DNA from: Carcharhinus longimanus
Taxonomy: Eukaryota
Direction: 5' to 3'
NCBI GenBank assembly: GCA_030264375.1
Contig: JASCQW010000109.1
Location: 28,896,798 to 28,960,797 of the forward strand
DNA length: 64,000 bases
Below, piece after piece: positions 45,143-59,700 of this stretch. The notes below the pieces were generated by a model. That model was given only the letters and a program-made list of their open reading frames with translations, did no database searches and was not told the origin of the DNA. Position 1 is the stretch's first letter; the number at the start of each line of letters is the position of its first letter. The translations under genes and the position numbers were made by a program.

Positions 45143-46346
45143 TTGCTTTAAATAGAAATTCTTAGAGTTGGAACGAGCCTCATCCATTGTGTAAAGGTTC
45201 CTGGCGGCAATCTGCAAGAGATGCGAATTCGGGATCGCTGTCTGAATTTTGATATGACAGGAACAAACCTCTCAAATGTCCTGGAATGTGCAGATGTCTG
45301 GGAAATGGACTGCCCATGTGTCCGAGTATTGTCCGATCACTGTGATTTAGACCAATTGTATTTACAGTCTGGCAGCTTCACGTCTCGCTCCACTGTATGA
45401 ATCTCAGCTTAAACCTCAAACGTACCCAAAAAACTCCGCCCCATTCGTCCGCTTAAGGTGCACCTAATACTACAAATTAAACATAGTGTAAAAATGGTTA
45501 CAGCTTGTCATCAACACTAAATAGAAGTTGACTCTGAATTGAAATTGACTGAAACTTCGTTCTCCAGGGAATCATGCCGGATTCAGGCTGCATTTACACT
45601 GTTAAGCGCAGTATCGTTGTGTAATGCAATGAGTCCTATAGTTGTAGAATAAGTGCATCTGTCGTCCAAATTGGCTTTGACATAAATGTATACATATTAT
45701 TTAAAGATTTTATAGCGTTCTGCACCATGCATAATCAATAATGGCTAACAGTTTGATATGAACAACTAAATAGCGGGGTCATGGAAACGTAGAAAATAGA
45801 AACAGCAGTAGGTCATTCGGCCCTTCGATCCTGAACCTAAGATCTGTCTGAATGACCGTTGCCCCAAGAAAGTCTTTCCCTCTGGATTCATTTGCGTGTA
45901 TCGGTGCAGTTTTATCGGTGCGATGTGATTGAATGAGAAACAGCCCCGGATTGATTGCAGTCAGTGAAATATCCGTCTATGTCCATTTTCATGATATACT
46001 CATGTCAGGCATAACAGCTTCTTATGACGTGCTTAACACTCAGCTCAGACGAATTCGTAGTTTGCACTGGGTCCAGTCTTTGACGTTCTCTTTCCTATAG
46101 GTGTCACTTGCGAGTCACTGAAATCCCTGGTTCACGGTTGAATTGACGGTATTGAAGAAGAGTTGTGTCACATTCATAACATATACACGTGCATACAACT
46201 TGGTCTAATCCACTTATTTGTTACAGTATTGTAACAAATACAAATGAAAACTGAGTGTAATAACTTCCTCGATTACTTGGTGTAAGGTGATATCAATAGC
46301 AGAAAAGATAAACAATCGTACATTTTGGGAAACCCAAACTATCAAT

Positions 46347-46480
46347 GCTTTGACAAAAGGTCATCTGGACTCGAAATGTCAGCTCTTTTCTCGCCTACAG
46401 GTGCTGCCAGACCTGCTGAGATTTTCCAGCGTTTTCTCTTTTGATGCTAATCCCAGCATTCGCAGTAATTTGCTTTTATA
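46347..46480 (+). mobile_element. Short Penelope-derived element (CpG-decayed hammerhead)
   Basis: gctttgacaaaaggtcatctggactcgaaatgtcagctc...gcagtaatttgcttttat; inverted relative to the 44871 copy. Confidence 0.75.
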
Positions 46481-47671
46481 TAATGGTCTATTGGGACTGT
46501 ACTGACAGCGGCAGAATCTAACGTTTCTAATAATGGGTAAAGATTTGCAAGTGAATGGGGGTTTTAGAAGAAACCCGACACTACACCTTTTTAGTCTATT
46601 TTTACCTTATCCACACCCGCCTCCCGCCAAGCTTGGTGAACTTCCTATTTCAGAGTTGCTCTAAAAGGTTATTCAATAATGTTGAATGTTTAAAATACGT
46701 ATTTAAACAAACTTTAAAAAACACACGCATTTGTACAATGATTATATATCCGCAGTTGAACTGCTTTGGGACTCAGAAATGTTCAAGCACCCAGTGTATA
46801 TCGCAGGGAAGTCAATCTGAGAAGGTTCTAGAATCTGCATACCACGAATTGTGAATTGTTTCCAGCATCTGATTAAGCACTGAAACCCGTTCCTGTTAAA
46901 ATTACCTGCAGTCAATTAAACTTCTCGAGGAAACCAGTAAAACCAGTCGCTGGTTGCAATTTACCAAGGTCCTGTACCAAGTGACGAGATCACTGAGATA
47001 GCCAGAAATTATTGGGTATTACTAAGGGCTGATTTAAAAGCAGATGTGCACATATATATAATTCCATCTCATGATAACCCCACTGGCTTTACTTCCAAAT
47101 GGTTCTACTGGAAAATAAATATATTTGGAGTTAGGCATTGCAAAGTTAGACACTGATCCGGATCTTCCTCCCGGCTAATCGCCGACTTTGTACTTGTTAT
47201 AAAAGGTCATGGATAGTTGATGTTTTAATTGGGTCAATATTTTGTTAACTCTAGCTAAAATTTTACTCCCTGCGTTTTAATGTTTTGCAAGCCAGCATGC
47301 ATAGGCCCGTCTATCGCATTTATAAAGAAACTCTCGACATGCAATAAGGTACTTTGTTATAAAAAGACACTCGGTAATCATAGAGCTGAGGTTGAATTTA
47401 TTGCAAAGAGTTTGTGTGCTGGTTAACGAAACCGAAATTCTTCCTATTTAACTACTGTTCTGACAGATAATGTGCAATTCCTCCCAAATTTCAGTCCAAA
47501 AAACGGTCACAGAATCTAAGACCACGTCTAGTCTGAGCTACTTTTAAGTGACTGGATTTTAATGAGCAAAGCGAATGCACAACATTGGAAGAGGGGCGTC
47601 CAGTTTGAAACAAAACATTCACCCATTTCAATCCAAAATCACACCACTGAAATGATCTGAATATATAAAGT

Positions 47672-47677
47672 TTTATT
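47672..47677 (-). terminator. Candidate distal polyadenylation signal of adrb2
   Basis: TGTACAAAATAAA on the minus strand (UGUA just upstream), followed by GT/T-rich sequence. Confidence 0.5.
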
Positions 47678-48348
47678 TTGTACACGAACAACAGCCAAAC
47701 ATTGATTCGAAATAATAAATATCCAAAAGTGTCTCATTTCTCAATTGCCTCAATTCATATGAAAGACCAAAATATTTTATGTCTTGTTTTCCATGGTTGT
47801 GCGAAAACATACTGACCAGGAAGGACATCAAGTAAACATTGAACTGCCCCATGCCTGTCCAGCGCCGAAATAACAAGCATTATTGCACATAAACCCACAA
47901 AATATCCGCTTCAAGCGTTGGCGCACAAGAGAATTCTAATACCCGGACACAGAAACTAAACAAATGCCCACAAAAATTTAAAAAAACCAAGATTTAACCT
48001 TTCAGTAAGATAGCTTTTGACTGACATCGGTACAAGTTAACCATTTACCATGGAAGTCTCAGAGCTTTCAGGTCAGGTCACTGTTGTTGACAGTGTGCGA
48101 TCGATGCTGAATCACATTGAAAGCACGCAGGTCTCTGACCGTGCTGGGGGAGGGGAGGGAGAGCCGCAAAATTACAGGTAATGTACGGACCTTATCTTCA
48201 TTTTAACACCAAAGAGCTTGAGTGCCGATTCGAAAGTGCAACATTGCAAAATACGCTTATGCACTTAAAGGTCACGACGAACACGCACACACATACAAAT
48301 ACAGACACAAGCATGTGAACACGCCGGCAACATGAACACACACACACA

Positions 48349-48354
48349 TTTATT
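48349..48354 (-). terminator. Candidate proximal polyadenylation signal of adrb2
   Basis: AATAAA on the minus strand immediately followed by a long GT-rich tract. Confidence 0.4.
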
Positions 48355-49092
48355 ATCCTTTTTGTGAATATTCGTGGAAAAAAGCAATGGGGTTAGCTAA
48401 CTCCTAGCTCTCTAATTGCGCTCAGCAGTTAGTCAACCTGCTGAAAGTCTCTAGCCTAAAGAAATCAGCTGACAACATCTCTTCCTGATACCCAAACATT
48501 CCAACATGGTCACCCACAACTGCACTGTACATCTCAACTGTGCTGTGATGTACTCTCTTTACATACACTGTAATGAATTGGTCAGCACTCTCTGCGCGCT
48601 TATACCCCAGGTATTTACTCTTTAACGTCCTAACACTACTATAGTGACTGGACTCCCAACATTTCCAGGGAACTCATTCAACCCTACAACTTGTTTAGAA
48701 TCACTTTGAACCGAACTCCTTCAAGTTTCGCCACCTTGCTCACAGCCCAGTATAAACAATTAGCATCCCGATGGAAAGGAGGGCGCAAAATACAAACAAA
48801 AAAATTAATGCTTTCAGTAAGGTCGACATGGCCTTTAGAAATAGGCATCATGCGAGTTTGTAAACATATAGACATTCACTGTTAATGCTCACGTAGCAAT
48901 ACTCGATTCTTGTCCTTCTGTTTGCACAGCTGGCCACATCTCCCAGAGGTGTCACACACCTCCACCACAATGTTGCTGCATTGTGTTGACAGAATTATGA
49001 GGTAGGCGAATGCATGAAGTTGGGACACTCGTGTCACTACTGAGTCCCCCCACTGATGCCTCACTCCGGTGTCCTCTCCGCCAGCTGCCGGT

Positions 49093-50352
49093 TTAGATGA
49101 CCGAGTCGAGCAGCCGGTGCTGGTTGCCGCTGGCGTCGGGGCTGCAGCTGGGCGGAGTGGCCGCCACCGAGGCAGCGCCACAGTGCAGCATGCAGCCGTT
49201 CTCCTGGCGCTCCTCGCTGGGCACCGTGGGGTAGTTGCTGTGGTGGGCCGAGGGCAGGGAGCCCCGGCAGCCCCACAGCACCGTCTTGAAGGCGTGCCTG
49301 AAGTCGGAGCTCCGGCAGTAAATCAGGGGGTTGAAGGCAGAGTTGGAGTAGCCCACCCAATTCAGGAAGGTGAAGACGGTGTTGGAGATGCTGTCTTTGA
49401 AGATGACATTGACGATGTTCACCACGAAGAAGGGCAGCCAGCAGAGTGTGAAGACGCCCATTATAATCCCCAGCGTCTTAAGAGCTTTGTGCTCCTTCAG
49501 GTTAAGGAACCTGGACGTCCTTTTGTGGCCGGGCTTGCCAGCCTTGCCATTGGCAGTGGGCACAGCAGCAGCAGAGGGGGTCAGGTTGTTGTTGTGGTTG
49601 TTGAAGCGACCCTGGCACTTGTTGATCTTCTTCAGCTGCTGCCTGGCTTCCTGAAAGACCCGGGTGTACAGAAAGATCATGACCAGCAGCGGAAAGTAGA
49701 AGGAGACGATGGAGGAGGAGATGGCGAACTCCTTGTTGGTGAGGAACTCGCAGCAGCGCGGGTCGGCGTAACACTTCATGGACTCGCGGTCGTCCAGCCT
49801 CCACCAGCCCATGTAGATGGGCAAGAAGGAGGTGAGAGCCGCCACCAGCCACACCACCAGCACCACCATCCGCGCCTTGCACTTGGTCAGCAGGCTCTGG
49901 TAGCGGAAAGGCGAGGTGATGGCCAGGTAGCGGTCCAGGGCGATCACACACAGGGTGCCAATACTCGCCGTAACGCACAGCACGTCCACCGAGGTCCAGA
50001 AGTCGCACCAGAAGTTTTCAAAGTACCAGACGCCGGTAATGCTGCGGACTCCGGCGAAAGGCACGACGACCAGTCCCATCACCAGGTCCGCACAGGCCAG
50101 CGAGGTGATGAAATAGTTAGTGACCGTCTGCAGCCGCTGGAAGCGGGCGATCGCCGTGATCACCAACACGTTGCCGAAGACGATCATCAGCACGATTACC
50201 GACATGACAATACTGACAATGATCTTCCCGCCGGGGCTCAGCTCCTTCCTGGCGGTGTTGCTGTCGGTGGTCGGAGCCGAGCTGGCGTTCAGCAGCTCCG
50301 GGGCCAGGGAGTAGTAGGTGCCCTCCTCCGAGCTGGTAACCTGAGATCCCAT
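49093..50352 (-). CDS. adrb2: Beta-2 adrenergic receptor, intronless class A GPCR, 419 aa
   Basis: Seven TM segments with GN, LACADL, D3.32 (SVDVLC), DRY, SSxxS in TM5, CWLPFF and NPLIY. Beta-2-type strings [25 protein letters not shown] and [15 protein letters not shown], and a C-terminal DSVI (human DSLL). First ATG at 50352 in a strong Kozak context (GAGATGG); the ORF track starts 6 nt earlier at a TTG. Confidence 0.93.
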
Positions 50353-50443
50353 CTCCAAAAGAGGGGATTGTGGAGGGGGGGGAGGGGGGCGGCCAGAGCA
50401 CCTCAGCTAAGCGGCAGAAGCTTGTTCCCACCCCCTACTTCTG

Positions 50444-50515
50444 TCAAACGGCGGCCCGGCTTCTATCTCTTCTCTCCCGGCCGGCCACTCGGCCCCCTCG
50501 CACTCTCCTGTGCAT
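50444..50515 (-). promoter_or_regulatory. Upstream ORF in adrb2 5' leader, MHRRVRGGRVAGRERRDRSRAAV (23 aa)
   Basis: Read by hand: ATG at 50515 to TGA at 50444. It is the only ATG between the TATA-like box and the main ATG. 9 of 23 residues are Arg. Confidence 0.65.
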
Positions 50516-50562
50516 AGCTGTGCTTTCAGAAAGCTGTACCAAAGCTTTCGCCTCTCTCTCTA

Positions 50563-50604
50563 CTTATAGCCACACAGAGGACGTCATCTCCTCATCAGAC
50601 CAAT
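50563..50604 (-). promoter_or_regulatory. adrb2 core promoter: reverse CCAAT box, CRE-like site, TATA-like box
   Basis: Sense strand reads gccATTGG (50604-50600), TGACGTCC (50586-50579, 7/8 match to CRE) and TATAAG (50568-50563) in that order, about 215-250 nt upstream of the ATG. Confidence 0.7.
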
Positions 50605-51157
50605 GGCTGTATATTTTCTAACTTCAAACTGTACAGATTGCGCAGACATCCTCTGTGCCTAACACTATTTACCCTCCAGCGTGAGAAAGGGGCCCAAGAT
50701 CCCTGTCAATTCTGCTCCCGGGTGTTGATTCAAGGCACCGCATCTCCCTGCAGCGTGCTTCAGGGTTGATTTAATAGTGTCACGTAGGCTTACATNNNNN
50801 NNNNNNNNNNNNNNNNNNNNNNNNNNNNNNNNNNNNNNNNNNNNNNNNCCCCCCCCGCCCCAATTCAGGCAGCTCACCCTATTCATACAGTCGCAAAACA
50901 CGCTATTATTGCAAAGTCTTTTCCGGGATATTGGGCGCAAAAATTCATCTCTCTCAAGCATTTTCTGTTTTTATTTCAAAAACACTGACCTGTCAGATTC
51001 TAGCCTGCAGTCAAAGTGGTGGCAGCACGGCCACTAAAGTTTTTGAGGAATTTCTCCCTCCGGCTAACTGAGTTTGCTGGGGGGTTCCGAGGTACCAACC
51101 CAACACCCACCCACCTGGTTTCAATTTCACCCTCTCCCCGTGTCTCAATGGATGGAA

Positions 51158-51466
51158 TTCATAGAATCCCTACAATGCCATTTGCCCCATGGAGTCTGCA
51201 CCAACAAGAATCCCACCCAAGCCCTATCCTCGAAACCCCACATATTTACCCTTCTAATCCCCCTGATACTAAGGGGCAACTTAGCATGGCCAATCCACCT
51301 AACCTGCACGTCTTTGGACTGCGGAAGGAAACCAGAGCACCCAGGGGAAACCCACGCAGACACGGGGAGAATGTGCAGACTCCTTCACAGACAGTGACCC
51401 GAAGCCGGGAATCAAACCTAGGTCCCTGGCGCTGTGAGGCAGCAGTGCTAACCACCTCGCCGCCCC
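51158..51466 (-). mobile_element. HE1-type V-SINE about 0.6 kb upstream of the adrb2 promoter
   Basis: Head, V-domain and tail present; most CpGs retained. Confidence 0.9.
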
Positions 51467-53546
51467 GAGGTTGCTTTTATTTCTAACTGCAAAGATCCCG
51501 CTCCCAGGGTATTGGAGAGCTTTGACGGACTGGCGGTGGAGACGGAGCCACGCACACACACACACGAGTTACTCTCCGCCATGCCACACGCTGCTGCCGA
51601 CAGGCGCTTTGCCACAATAGGGTGACTTTCCATCAGCAGGGTAATGAAGAGGTTCGGAGCCGGCCACTGGATGATTTGAACATGATACAAGCCCAACTAC
51701 ATTCTGATCCGTGAACAGGATTCATTCCAGCGTTCAAAGTTCTACGACAGTATTTCCAATTTGTTTATCACAAAATACAGTATGAAACAAGAAATAAATC
51801 TCACATTGATATCTGCACAGCGTCGAGTGCTGATATTTTGCATAGGGAAAGTGCAAGTTCTTGGGAAAGTCTTGGAATTAGAGGTTTACACCATGGAAAC
51901 AGGCCCTTCGGCCCAACTTCTCCTTGCCGCCCCTTTTTTAACCCCTAAACTAGTCCCAACTGATAGAGCCATAGATGTTTACAGCAAAGTTTTCAGATAT
52001 GTTCAGGTCTGCCTGACTTTCCTGTTGGTTGTCATGAGCGCCCCGGGGGTGTTTTATTCTGCTTTCATGAAAAAAAAACTCGCTACCTAAATGCAAACAG
52101 TTATGCGCGCAGAATTGTAGCATTTCTGGAGGAATCGCTGGAACCTGCTCAAGTTGTTTTATACTGGAGACCTGTTTAAGCAAACGCTGGATTGCTCAAT
52201 TCCCCCGTCACAGTTTTTGATTTACAAGGAGACAATTGTTGTAATGCCTCAGTGCGGGGATCCAGCTGGGGCTGAACTATCTATCTATCGTACTCTCACA
52301 GAGAGGCAATGAAAACTCTCCCTCAGCTNNNNNNNNNNNNNNNNNNNNNNNNNNNNNNNNNNNNNNNNNNNNNNNNNNNNNNNNNNNNNNNNNNNNNNNN
52401 NNNNNNNNNNNNNNNNNNNNNNNNNNNNAAACTCTCCCTCAGCTTGACGTTTTTACAAAAGATTTATTCGGGCGATATATTTGAAGGCAGAAAAGCAGTA
52501 GCGCTACTGCCATTTTCCTGAGAAAATACCTTAGTAACTTTTTAAAACATAGATTATTTATCATTTGGAGGAGTGGATTATATTTTATGAAAAATATTCA
52601 CGAATACTATTCATGAATCCGTATATCACCGTCAGCGTGGCTGTTTGTCATGTTTTCACCTCTGTCAGTTCAGGGTTTAATCGTTTGAGACCGTTCCAGG
52701 GATTGAATTGGGGTGAGAGTTGCTGGTGATTCATCACTAGGATGACAATGTAAACTGCAGCCTTTTTGGTTTCCTGCTCTTGCGTCTGTTAAATCTCCCA
52801 TTACACTATTTGAGGAATTGCATCGAGCCCTCCCACCGTCAGGGTCAGCATTCCACTCTACGCCAGTCTTTTGCTGACTTAACGACTGTTTCGGCAATGT
52901 AAGTGAGTTCACTGTGAAGGGCTTTGGGAACTGAGCTTAAACTTTGTTCTGTAAACGTACCGTAATGTAACTGCGGGCGAGAACAGACTTTGCCTCATTT
53001 CAGCCCATATCCAGCCAAAGTGGCCTCCACCGCAAAATCCAATTCTTTCTCACATGCTGCCAGGGAAATGGGATGTGTTGGCCCATCTGTGTGAACCAAA
53101 GCTTCCGGATGACAGTCCTCATTGTGTTTATTAGTTTCAACCTATAATATCTTGTTAGCAGTTTGATATAATTTTCCGGATTAACCGTTCACACGTTTTC
53201 CAGCCTCGCATGCCCAAATCAGACACTTATTAGCTAGTTAGAGTTCAAAAAGTTATTATCTTTTGCTAATAGTGACATGAAATTAATTCACTCAGTGCGG
53301 GAGGCCGAGGCAACAATCCGGTTACCTTCTCGCACTGGGGTCACATATTGTTCAAATATGACTTGACAAGGACTAGAAACTGTGAAAAAAAACCTCAACT
53401 CATTCAAGGTGGGCTCAGGAACAAGTGGCTGATGGATGCATTGCCTCAACCCACAGCAACCGAGGACACTCGGACGAAGCAAGCCAAGGGATTTCTCTAA
53501 GAGTGCGTGGCGTGGCCAGCGCTGAACAGATCACACCTTCAACATT

Positions 53547-53645
53547 GAAGAAGGGTCATCCAGTCTGGAAACGTTCGTTCTTTTCTCTCTCCACACAGAT
53601 GCTGACAGACCTGCTGAGATTTTCCAGCATTTTCTATGCTTTGTT
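53547..53645 (+). mobile_element. 99-bp Penelope-derived insertion with perfect 14-bp TSD
   Basis: acaccttcaacatt at 53533-53546 and 53646-53659; body matches the 46347 element. Confidence 0.8.
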
Positions 53646-54709
53646 ACACCTTCAACATTACTAGATGAAATTTCAACACTATCGCTTCCCAATCTCGGTT
53701 TGAGAAAAGGTGCTGATTGTTAAGAAATAAAAGCTTCTGGCACCAACAATTCTTGACCTCAGTTCAATTCGACTCCAGAAATGGGACGAGGCGTAAAGGG
53801 GGAAGCACAATTGTGCACATTTCTCCGCATCAGTGGGAGAAAGAGCGCAGACATTAATTGTCTTTACACCAAGTCCGGATTTGCAGTTTCAGCAAAAGCC
53901 CACAACCAGCTCAATTTAATTTCAGTAAGATTGGAAAATGTAAAGATTTGAATGCACCCGTTGCCCATCATGATTATCAATGACTGCTTCACTGAAACCA
54001 TTGGATTGTTATGTTCCGTGAATATGTATCACAGTTGATTGCATGGGGAAGATGGTGAATATGACATTTGGATTATCCTTTAAGTTACCCTTGGTGTGGA
54101 TGGATGTTACACAATGCTAACAGTTGGTAGAAATAACAAGTCCATACATACACCGGCGGTACATAATTCATAACGCGGCATGCATTTTATGATGTAAAAA
54201 AAAACATTGAAGCCGGGCGTGCCTGATTACCTAATGAAACAAAATAAAAACATTTATATCCTGACCCATATGGTGCTTAATCTTAGCGTGGCCAATGCAC
54301 CTAACCCACTTAATGAGATGAGTGTAGAGTTATTCCGGTCATATTAGTTAATTCCCCTCCTCATTGCCCACAATTAATTGATTCAGTGAAACGATTGTAC
54401 AGAATCCTCAAGAAAAGATCTCTATAGCCTAACCTGCCTGATTTTCAGACGGGATAGAACTGTGCTAAGATATATATAGATCAATTAATGGTTATTTATA
54501 TTTTGCGCCATATATAAAAGGCTGATGTCGGCAACAAAATGTATGACGCACTTCTGAAGCCCTTTGGAATAAATTGAAATGCTGTTTATAGTTATTCGTT
54601 TTCATCTGCTCGCATGGCGTTACAGGACTGAGCCTACTTGTATATTTAACAAGGATTCTAATATCACACTGACGTCACACTATTTTGTGGAGGTCAGCCT
54701 GTTTGAAGA

Positions 54710-56490
54710 CGGTTGAGCAAGTTAACGATGGTGTAAATAAAGCATTTGGCTGATTGGTTTTATAAATAAGGGCATTGGATATAAATGCAAGGGAATCATG
54801 ACAAATCTTTACAATTCCGGGTCAGTCCTCAGCTGCAGTATTGTGCTCAGTGGCCAGCGTCCTGCTTTGGCAAGGGTGGAGAGAAAGTCACTATCACTGT
54901 GGGACAAAGAGAGAAAGAGAAAACATGAATTGATGGGACTGATAGCAGGAGACAAGAAATTGTTGGAATCTATTATTAAGGAAGTCTTAACAATGCACTA
55001 AGGAAATCATAATATGATCAGTCAGGATGAGGATTTTGCAAATGGAAAATTACATTTGTCAAAATCTATTTGAGTTATTAGAGGATATATCTACCTAGGT
55101 AGACAAACTAAGAGATCTAGGCAAAAATTTGACATCCCTTCCACCCAACAGAACATGATAGTCCCCGTCCAACTGAATGGAGATTTAAATGGCTCACTGC
55201 GTCCATTGCCTGGAGACTCGCTGTGGCAAGGCCATTAAATCTTAGCGGTAGCCTACTTTGACTTCCTAAAGGCATTCATTGAGCCTTATTGAATAAGATG
55301 CCACACAAAAGGCTAATCTGGAAGATAAAGCATAAAGTCTCCTGAGTTGGATTGAGAATTGGTTAATGGAGACTTGGGATAAATGAGACATTTTCAAGTT
55401 GGCAAGCGTTAAGTGGTTACTGCTGCATGGGATTGTCCACCCCAGAAGATTTTTAATGCCTCATTGTTGAATATATTTAACTGGTGTAGACAGATATTTA
55501 ACTTCTCAGTGGTCAAAGGATATGGGCAGTGAATGGGAAAGTGGAGTCGAGGCAGGATTTCAGTCATGACAATATTGAATTATAATTCAAAGGGTGAAAT
55601 AGTCTATTCCTGATTGGCCACTCAGCCCATCGAGTCTGCTCCACCACTCAATAAAGTCAGAGCTGACCTGATTGTAACTTTAACCTCATGTTCCTGCTAG
55701 TCCCAATAACCTTTCACCTCCTTGTTAATCAGTAATATATCTAGCTCTGCCTTAAAAATATTCAAGGAGTGGAATTTTGCAGGCAAGCCCGCCCGAGGTT
55801 CATACGATCCCGCCCGAGGCCAACACAGCCTCTGACTCCTCAGTCCTCTGAGCCTCGCCGGCCCCTGGAATTGGGGTGGATGTGCCAATAAAATTCTAGT
55901 CAAAGACTCTGAAGAGAGTTTCAAAAACCCATGTTCCACAGAGGGAACAACATTTTCTATTTCTTATGTTACGTACAAGATGATACCAGGCATGAGGGAT
56001 TACAGTTATAGGGAGAGGTTGGAGAAATTGAGATTGCTTCTTTTTGACCAGAGGAGATTAAGACGAGATACAGTGAAGACAAAATGGAGGCATTCAATAT
56101 TATAAGAGGTAAAGGAAACCACATCCTCTAGTAAGTGGGTTAGCAACCAAAAGTTACGGATGTAAAATATTTGGCAAAAGAGCTGGAAGAGAAATGAGAT
56201 TACTTTTCCAGATTAGAACATTAAGATCTGGAATTCAGTCTCTGGAGGAATGTTGAAAGTGGATTCCATGGGTTATTTCAAAATGTTTATTTTATTTATT
56301 AGTGTCACAAGTAGGCTTGTATTAACACTGCAATGAAGTTACTGTGACAATTCCCTGTAATTGGATATGTACTTGAAGAGGATTAATTTGCACATTTATG
56401 AGGAAAATGTTGCATTGTGAGACTAAATTGAATCACTCTTTCAAAGAGTCACAATAGGCACAATGGGCTGAATGGCCTCATCTGCACTAT
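54710..56490. mobile_element. Decayed CR1 fragments with small palindromic inserts and a solo SINE tail (56285-56356)
   Basis: LLESIIKE, LDF.KAF..PHKRL, GLQL.GEVGE-type remnants and aatgggctgaatggcctc terminal motif. Confidence 0.6.
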
Positions 56491-58625: not shown

Positions 58626-59219
58626 TAGTTGTTTCCTCTGGTTTCCCCAAGGCTGCTGCCCCCTGCACCATGGTCATTTCCCCCTTCTGTCCCATGGCCA
58701 CTTCCACCTCATTTTTCTTTCTCCCCTATGGCCACTGTCCTTGTCCCATTGCTGCCCCCTACTTCATTCTGCTGCTGTCTCCTCTCTCCTTCTCATGTCA
58801 TAGTCTGGGTCTTTAAGGATTTACTTTCCTAGTATTTCTAGCTTGCCCAATCAGGGGCTGATTTCTCATTGCATTGGTGGCTCATAGGAAATAGAGAAAG
58901 TACAGGGCCAACATGTTCCCATAAAGTTAAAGGGTGGATTCACATGTCCAGAATACCCTGGATGCCAAGGGATATATAAGCATCCTATAAAAACAGCACC
59001 AACCTTCGCAGAAGACAAACGCGGCAGACAGAGTACCCCTTGTTGTCCAGTATTTCCCTGTACTGGATGGGTAAGCACTGGAGAAGCCACAATATCTTTT
59101 CCGAAGCCTTCAACATGTCNNNNNNNNNNNNNNNNNNNNNNNNNNNNNNNNNNNNNNNNNNNNNNNNNNNNNNNNNNNNNNNNNNNNNNNNNNNNNNNNN
59201 NNNNNNNNNNNNNNNNNNN

Positions 59220-59700
59220 AGCAACCTTTTGTGAGGCACCTTATCGAACGCCTTCTGGAAATCTAAAAACACCACATCCACCGGTTCCCCTCTGTCAACT
59301 GCACTAGTCACATCTTCATAAAAATCCAGTAAATTTGTCAAACATGGCTTCCTCTTCATGAATCCATGCTGCGTCTGCTTGATTGAACCATTCCTTTCCA
59401 GGTGTCCTGCTATTTCTTCTTTAATGATAGATTCCAACATTTTCCCAACTATGGACATTAAGCTAACCAGCCTATAGTTACCCACCTTTTGTCTACTTCC
59501 TTTTTTAAACAGTGGTGTAATAGTAGCTGTTTTCCAATCAGCTGGCACTTCCCTAGAGTCCGACGAATTTTGATAAATGACTACTTACGCATCTGCTATT
59601 ACTTCTGCCATTTCTTTCAATACCCTGGGATGCATTCCATCCAGGCCCAGGGTCTTGTCTACCTTCAGTCCCATTAGTCTACCAAGCATTACCTCTTTAG
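59220..59700 (-). mobile_element. Well-preserved CR1 reverse transcriptase fragment
   Basis: PADWKTATITPLFKKG..GNYR.VSL.S..GKMLESII..QHGF..CLTNLLDFYE..VFLDFQKAFDKVPH. Confidence 0.95.

Follow-up and report, generated by a model that had tools for sequence, protein, structure and literature searches.

The 5′ leader of mammalian ADRB2 carries a short cistron which encodes the beta upstream peptide, BUP (Parola and Kobilka, 1994, as cited in PMC9776223 and PMC2490741). In Table 3 of PMC9776223 it is entered as a 19-aa upstream peptide which inhibits the receptor, and the −47 SNP is assigned to codon 19 of human BUP by PMC5859892 and PMC7733025. Three consecutive Arg residues are described as critical for BUP, and the peptide is thought to bind mRNA, in PMC2490741; the same paper describes Arg stretches which attenuate the translation of PTPRJ. 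The human Ribo-seq ORF listed as c5riboseqorf104 in the supplement of PMC10032668 has 19 aa, including six Arg and three Pro. As a class, upstream ORFs (uORFs) are present in ∼50% of human and mouse mRNAs and in 65% of zebrafish mRNAs, and the repression which they exert is modest on average, ∼15–30% (PMC4890304).

A preliminary description of a 64-kb window of Carcharhinus longimanus DNA (the window being the whole stretch that was analysed) had placed an Arg-rich uORF in the leader of adrb2 and suggested it as a possible shark counterpart of BUP. The assignment of the host gene was correct and this is a true adrb2 orthologue. The best solved-structure matches of the 419-aa receptor were ADRB2, a Pfam 7tm_1 domain was present, and the best database match was adrb2 of Mustelus asterias (95%), with other sharks and rays next in rank. 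A tree was constructed from 19 proteins, these included 16 of the 120 listed matches, the window protein and the teleost paralogues L001 and L002; the receptor fell inside the ADRB2 clade (98/96) as sister to Mustelus (97/93), a placement which makes a carcharhiniform shark the most likely source of the window. The 25 listed cluster members of the receptor are 411–434 aa long, and no N-terminal extension through the leader was found among 13 chondrichthyan proteins. The features of the locus are collected in Table 1.

Table 1. Features of the adrb2 locus, with positions in the 64-kb window
Feature	Position	Strand	Remarks
Inverted CCAAT box	50600–50604	minus	ATTGG on gene strand; no change listed in relatives
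CRE-like motif	50579–50586	minus	TGACGTCC; no change listed in relatives
TATA-like box	50563–50568	minus	TATAAG; no change listed in relatives
uORF, ATG to TGA	50515–50444	minus	23 codons, 9 Arg; peptide MHRRVRGGRVAGRERRDRSRAAV
Fork point	50513–50514	.	contig of run X13 (organism E) leaves the locus here
Spacer, uORF stop to receptor ATG	50353–50443	minus	91 nt; G-run and C-run segments
adrb2 CDS	49093–50352	minus	single ORF, 419 aa; Pfam 7tm_1
Candidate poly(A) signal	47672–47677	minus	AATAAA; ∼1.4 kb beyond CDS stop

Downstream of the gene, the end of a contig from run X1 was calculated, on the assumption of no indels, to lie near 47634, ∼40 nt below the AATAAA, and this weakly suggests that X1 is mRNA. 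The ratio of observed to expected CpG is ∼0.45–0.95 across ∼10 kb around adrb2 (45200–54800) and mostly 0.0–0.5 above 54800, a profile which suggests a broad germline-unmethylated domain. Upstream of adrb2, at ∼51270–51470, lies a stretch which we take to be SINE-like, and at 58985–59584 there is a fragment which presumably resembles a LINE reverse transcriptase. On the plus strand an antisense frame (49057–50517) runs for 486 stop-free codons over the whole of the CDS and leader, and the TAG at its end overlaps the uORF start codon (uATG); this frame probably only mirrors the GC-rich CDS. As a protein query for the leaders of relatives it gave three matches, none usable over the leader: two fall in the CDS part and the third, P0122, is a repetitive protein of 1330 aa. 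A second antisense-frame search for the same leaders gave none among 109 candidates. Scans for related adrb2 loci gave none among 93 candidate stretches and none among 31 in prokaryote genomes, and a further scan retained two of 187 candidates, both of them teleost paralogues (L001 and L002) and not adrb2.

The uORF has the size, Arg content and location 3′ of the TATA-like box given in the preliminary description. It starts 163 nt 5′ of the adrb2 ATG (50352), ends 91 nt before that ATG and lies in a different frame from the CDS. The context of its start is moderate, with G at −3 and C at +4, while that of the adrb2 ATG is strong, with G at both positions. Between the TATA-like box (50568) and the adrb2 ATG there is no ATG other than the uATG, and five additional ATGs lie above the box (50587, 50595, 50649, 50743 and 50795); consequently the description of the uORF as single holds if transcription begins near the TATA-like box, and fails otherwise. 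Transcription is predicted to start near 50535–50540, ∼30 nt below the box, which would leave the uAUG as the sole one in the leader, 20–25 nt from the cap. Two minus-strand ATG ORFs, of 21 aa (50584–50649) and 24 aa (50669–50743), are located above the TATA-like box. Contigs of four relatives extend above the box, to 50691 in organism A, 50774 in C and 50783 in E, and to a point beyond 50790 in B; such contigs cannot mark a start, and where they extend at least 120 nt above the box they possibly reflect initiation farther upstream, divergent antisense transcripts or the presence of DNA in the source runs. That these runs are RNA is a guess, and they may be DNA or carry antisense RNA; they therefore give no information on expression. 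Searches of Pfam and PDB gave no match for the 23-aa peptide, Rfam gave none within 47000–53000, and the predicted leader showed no unusual fold, folding no better than shuffles (z 0.35).

When the predicted leader of 185 nt was shuffled 20 000 times, a uATG was present in 74–90% of the sequences and a complete uORF of at least 15 codons in 23–38%, so the presence of a uORF is by itself unremarkable. What defines an ordinary uORF, an ATG and an in-frame stop 5′ of the CDS, is found here within the predicted leader. Leaky scanning and reinitiation after a short uORF are established parts of the scanning model. The account which we favour, as somewhat more probable than all others together, is that of a peptide-independent scanning brake, an ordinary uORF which likely belongs to the mRNA leader and arose probably independently of BUP. 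With the TATA-like box directing transcription, the uAUG would lie ∼20–25 nt from the cap; owing to its moderate context some ribosomes would pass it and continue to the strong AUG of the receptor, and those which begin at the uAUG would terminate after 23 codons, from where reinitiation beyond the 91-nt spacer could follow. The diversion of scanning ribosomes would modestly lower translation of the receptor, probably whatever the sequence of the peptide.

The uORF is indeed Arg-rich, with nine Arg among 23 residues (39%), and a peptide-dependent action has to be weighed against the base composition of the DNA. In the window, which holds 776 small ORFs with an ATG start, it has the highest share of Arg and is the only one with an Arg fraction of at least 0.25, a ranking made against a window most of which is far less G-rich than the uORF. 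The uORF is 69% G+A and 68% G+C, and four to five Arg are already expected from shuffles of its letters, which bears out the earlier caveat that GC/AG-rich DNA inflates Arg. When the uORF body was shuffled and the reading frame only was counted, at least nine Arg were obtained in 1.2% of mononucleotide and 3.4% of dinucleotide shuffles, and the figure was 6.7% when any of the three frames was allowed; the Arg excess of the uORF over its own base composition is borderline (P 0.01–0.07). The joint event of a complete uORF and an Arg fraction of at least 0.39 was found in 0.0001–0.0006 of whole-leader shuffles, a null which takes no account of the local purine-rich patch. It is likely that the Arg richness comes mostly from a G/A-rich stretch conserved as DNA along with the core promoter. 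Because Arg richness was what had been predicted, the excess gives mild support for a role of the peptide.

Such a role would be expected if the shark uORF were a convergent, peptide-dependent brake, with an Arg-rich nascent chain which slows the ribosome or binds mRNA, as proposed for BUP. The position of the uORF at the top of the 776 small ORFs and the Arg excess within its own frame (P 0.01–0.03) point in this direction, as do the attenuation of PTPRJ by Arg stretches (PMC2490741) and the RV and VR pairs in the peptide, Arg beside bulky residues such as Val being known to lower mRNA levels in human cells (PMC9652226). However, the peptide has no run of three Arg, the feature cited as critical for BUP (PMC2490741), Arg15 is replaced in two relatives (organisms E and J), and the excess falls to P 0.07 with any frame allowed. 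These data make a convergent peptide brake improbable, and the peptide-independent brake is preferred to it.

The relatives sampled were represented by eight of 22 runs from six of 10 organisms, and the uATG was covered by five runs, from organisms A, B, C, E and J. The uATG is intact in all five. As these relatives are only 92–99% identical, such retention is expected by chance at ∼0.57, the calculated probability that an ATG survives at this divergence. The uORF stop lies well inside the contig only in A and J, is near the end of the alignment in E, and is beyond the contigs of B and C. Runs X10 and X11 (organism C) end below the uORF and were excluded from site counts, and run X12 (organism D) gave no contig; none of these gaps counts as evidence. 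Where the uORF is covered, no indel was listed in it; several were listed in the spacer (at 50365–50431 in organisms C and J) and in the upstream flank. Listed variable sites numbered four of 72 in the uORF and three of 70 in the core promoter, compared with 29 of 170 in the upstream flank (Fisher P 0.023 and 0.007). Among the changes listed, none of the 44 sites at 50476–50519 was altered, a segment which includes the first 13 codons of the uORF; differences within ∼30 nt of contig ends are apparently unlisted, and the invariance of 50476–50496 is stated for relatives other than organism C. The unaltered first codons and the lack of listed indels in the uORF weigh against the favoured, peptide-independent account.

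Each of the four changes listed for the uORF replaces an amino acid: E14G is common to all five relatives, organism E also has R15S and D17E, and organism J has R15K. Under neutrality this outcome has P 0.24, and four non-synonymous changes are too small a sample to be incompatible with weak constraint on the peptide. From these few changes there is no sign of selection on the uORF peptide, and the pattern of variation fits a constraint at the level of DNA or RNA common to the uORF and the core promoter. That the non-coding core promoter is as constrained as the uORF would also be expected if the ORF were a by-product of conserved promoter-proximal DNA with little effect, the main transcripts bypassing the uAUG, through other start sites or an alternative 5′ exon which joins inside it, or rarely using it. 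Against this, position −3 of the uATG is a purine and all five relatives with coverage retain it intact, whereas two of the four testable upstream ATGs (50743 and 50595) were lost in organisms C and E; the ATG at 50743 was lost in both of these organisms, and that at 50649 was kept in the covered relatives.

The by-product explanation gains further from a contig of organism E. In run X13 a contig of 672 nt matches 50484–50513 exactly and then continues into other sequence, which has other letters in place of the uATG's A and T; when the contig was read by eye in the direction of the gene, an in-frame stop was found directly before the joint. The far side of this fork was not found within the 64-kb window. 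The fork is possibly an alternative 5′ exon which gives a 5′ end free of the uORF, and may equally be a spliced antisense RNA, a structural allele, a retrocopy or a chimera. Several RefSeq accessions exist for one adrb2 protein in Narcine (four, P0129) and Callorhinchus (two, P0013), which suggests alternative untranslated exons, 5′ or 3′, in the single-coding-exon adrb2 of chondrichthyans and would suit transcripts which bypass the uAUG. However, the fork was seen in one of the five runs covering the uATG, the intact form is also present in run X13, and a fit to splice sites requires a coincidence of 6 nt for a sense-strand acceptor at 50508/50507 or of 4 nt for an antisense donor at 50510. 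Taken together, these observations leave the by-product explanation unlikely, although it deserves more weight than any reading which depends on the peptide. If a 5′ isoform which skips the uORF is real, it would provide an extra switch for tuning adrenergic sensitivity. A still more elaborate scheme, in which an ancient Arg-rich, peptide-dependent brake on adrb2 is combined with a shark alternative 5′ exon inside the uATG to form a switch between repressed and derepressed isoforms, is the least credible of the readings considered here.

Short peptides can escape homology detection, and the BUP of rodents is reportedly similar to that of humans. In the supplement of PMC10032668 human BUP is classed as ‘primatomorpha – young’ and ‘de novo’, with PhyloCSF values of −8.3 in primates and −248.6 in mammals. 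In the pipeline of PMC10032668 ORF structure was checked only in primates and colugos, and ‘primatomorpha’ is the oldest class available to an ORF whose peptide has no significant homologue in mammals other than primates. Owing to these limits of the class, to the ease with which short peptides are missed and to the similarity ascribed to rodents, the class given in PMC10032668 lowers the case for conservation of BUP and does not remove it.

The shark and human uORFs were compared by eye at four ungapped offsets, which gave four, four, four and six identities of 19, with 3.2 expected; at least six identities of 19 have P ∼0.35 over five offsets. The best value is therefore at the level of chance, in agreement with the earlier caveat that linear similarity to BUP is weak. 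Descent of the shark uORF and BUP from a jawed-vertebrate ancestor, with peptide-dependent repression, could account for several likenesses. Both are short, ATG-initiated and non-overlapping, both end before the AUG of the same orthologous gene, and they are similar in length (23 codons in the shark, 19 in BUP) and in share of Arg (39%, 9/23, and 32%, 6/19). The order of the CCAAT, CRE-like and TATA-like elements also resembles that of the mammalian ADRB2 promoter, which counts in favour of homology. Nevertheless, identity is at chance level, the shark peptide has no Pro whereas human BUP has three, and the positions differ: the shark uORF spans −163 to −92, ∼20 nt from the predicted cap, and the human uORF, as derived from published data, spans ∼−101 to −42 of a 221-nt leader, ∼120 nt from the annotated cap. 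Furthermore, even within mammals a coding signature is lacking for BUP in the supplement of PMC10032668. With BUP itself PhyloCSF-negative and no constraint seen on the shark peptide, the suggestion of a counterpart by descent was not upheld: ancient homology with a jawed-vertebrate origin is unsupported, a true BUP homologue is very improbable, and the uORF is most likely analogous to BUP rather than homologous. Shared descent would make it a rare case of a peptide-dependent uORF spanning jawed-vertebrate history without recognisable sequence, in which charge and not sequence was selected.

By analogy, the shark uORF may work like BUP. Translation and repression have been demonstrated for BUP, whereas for the shark uORF they are predicted. 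At most two consecutive Arg are found in the shark peptide, and likewise two in the human peptide; as the human peptide has only two in a row, a run of three is not universal for BUP. The PTPRJ attenuator is similar in that a basic nascent peptide near the 5′ end possibly slows translation, and differs in that it is an in-frame extension with eight consecutive Arg, while the shark uORF is separate from the CDS and its Arg residues never exceed two in a row.

No account of an adrb2 uORF outside mammals, sharks included, was found in the open-access literature covered, and the word ‘adrenergic’ is absent from the main text of the survey of animal CPuORFs in PMC7530721; the shark adrb2 uORF appears to be undescribed so far and of a common kind. 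Among the teleost paralogues, a 250-nt stretch of the adrb1-like L001 contains four uATGs, which open ORFs of 23–32 aa with four to five Arg each, and L002 has five uATGs. In L001 (1280–1498) one of the four uATGs opens a 23-aa ORF which overlaps the start of the main ORF. The shark uORF differs from generic vertebrate uORFs in being unusually rich in Arg for its window, as the single one of 776 small ORFs with an Arg fraction of at least 0.25. In other respects it resembles the generic vertebrate uORFs described in PMC4890304, being short, with a start context weaker than that of the main ORF, and ending well before the CDS, and on present evidence it is more likely to be another uORF on the leader of a GPCR, which is a common thing.
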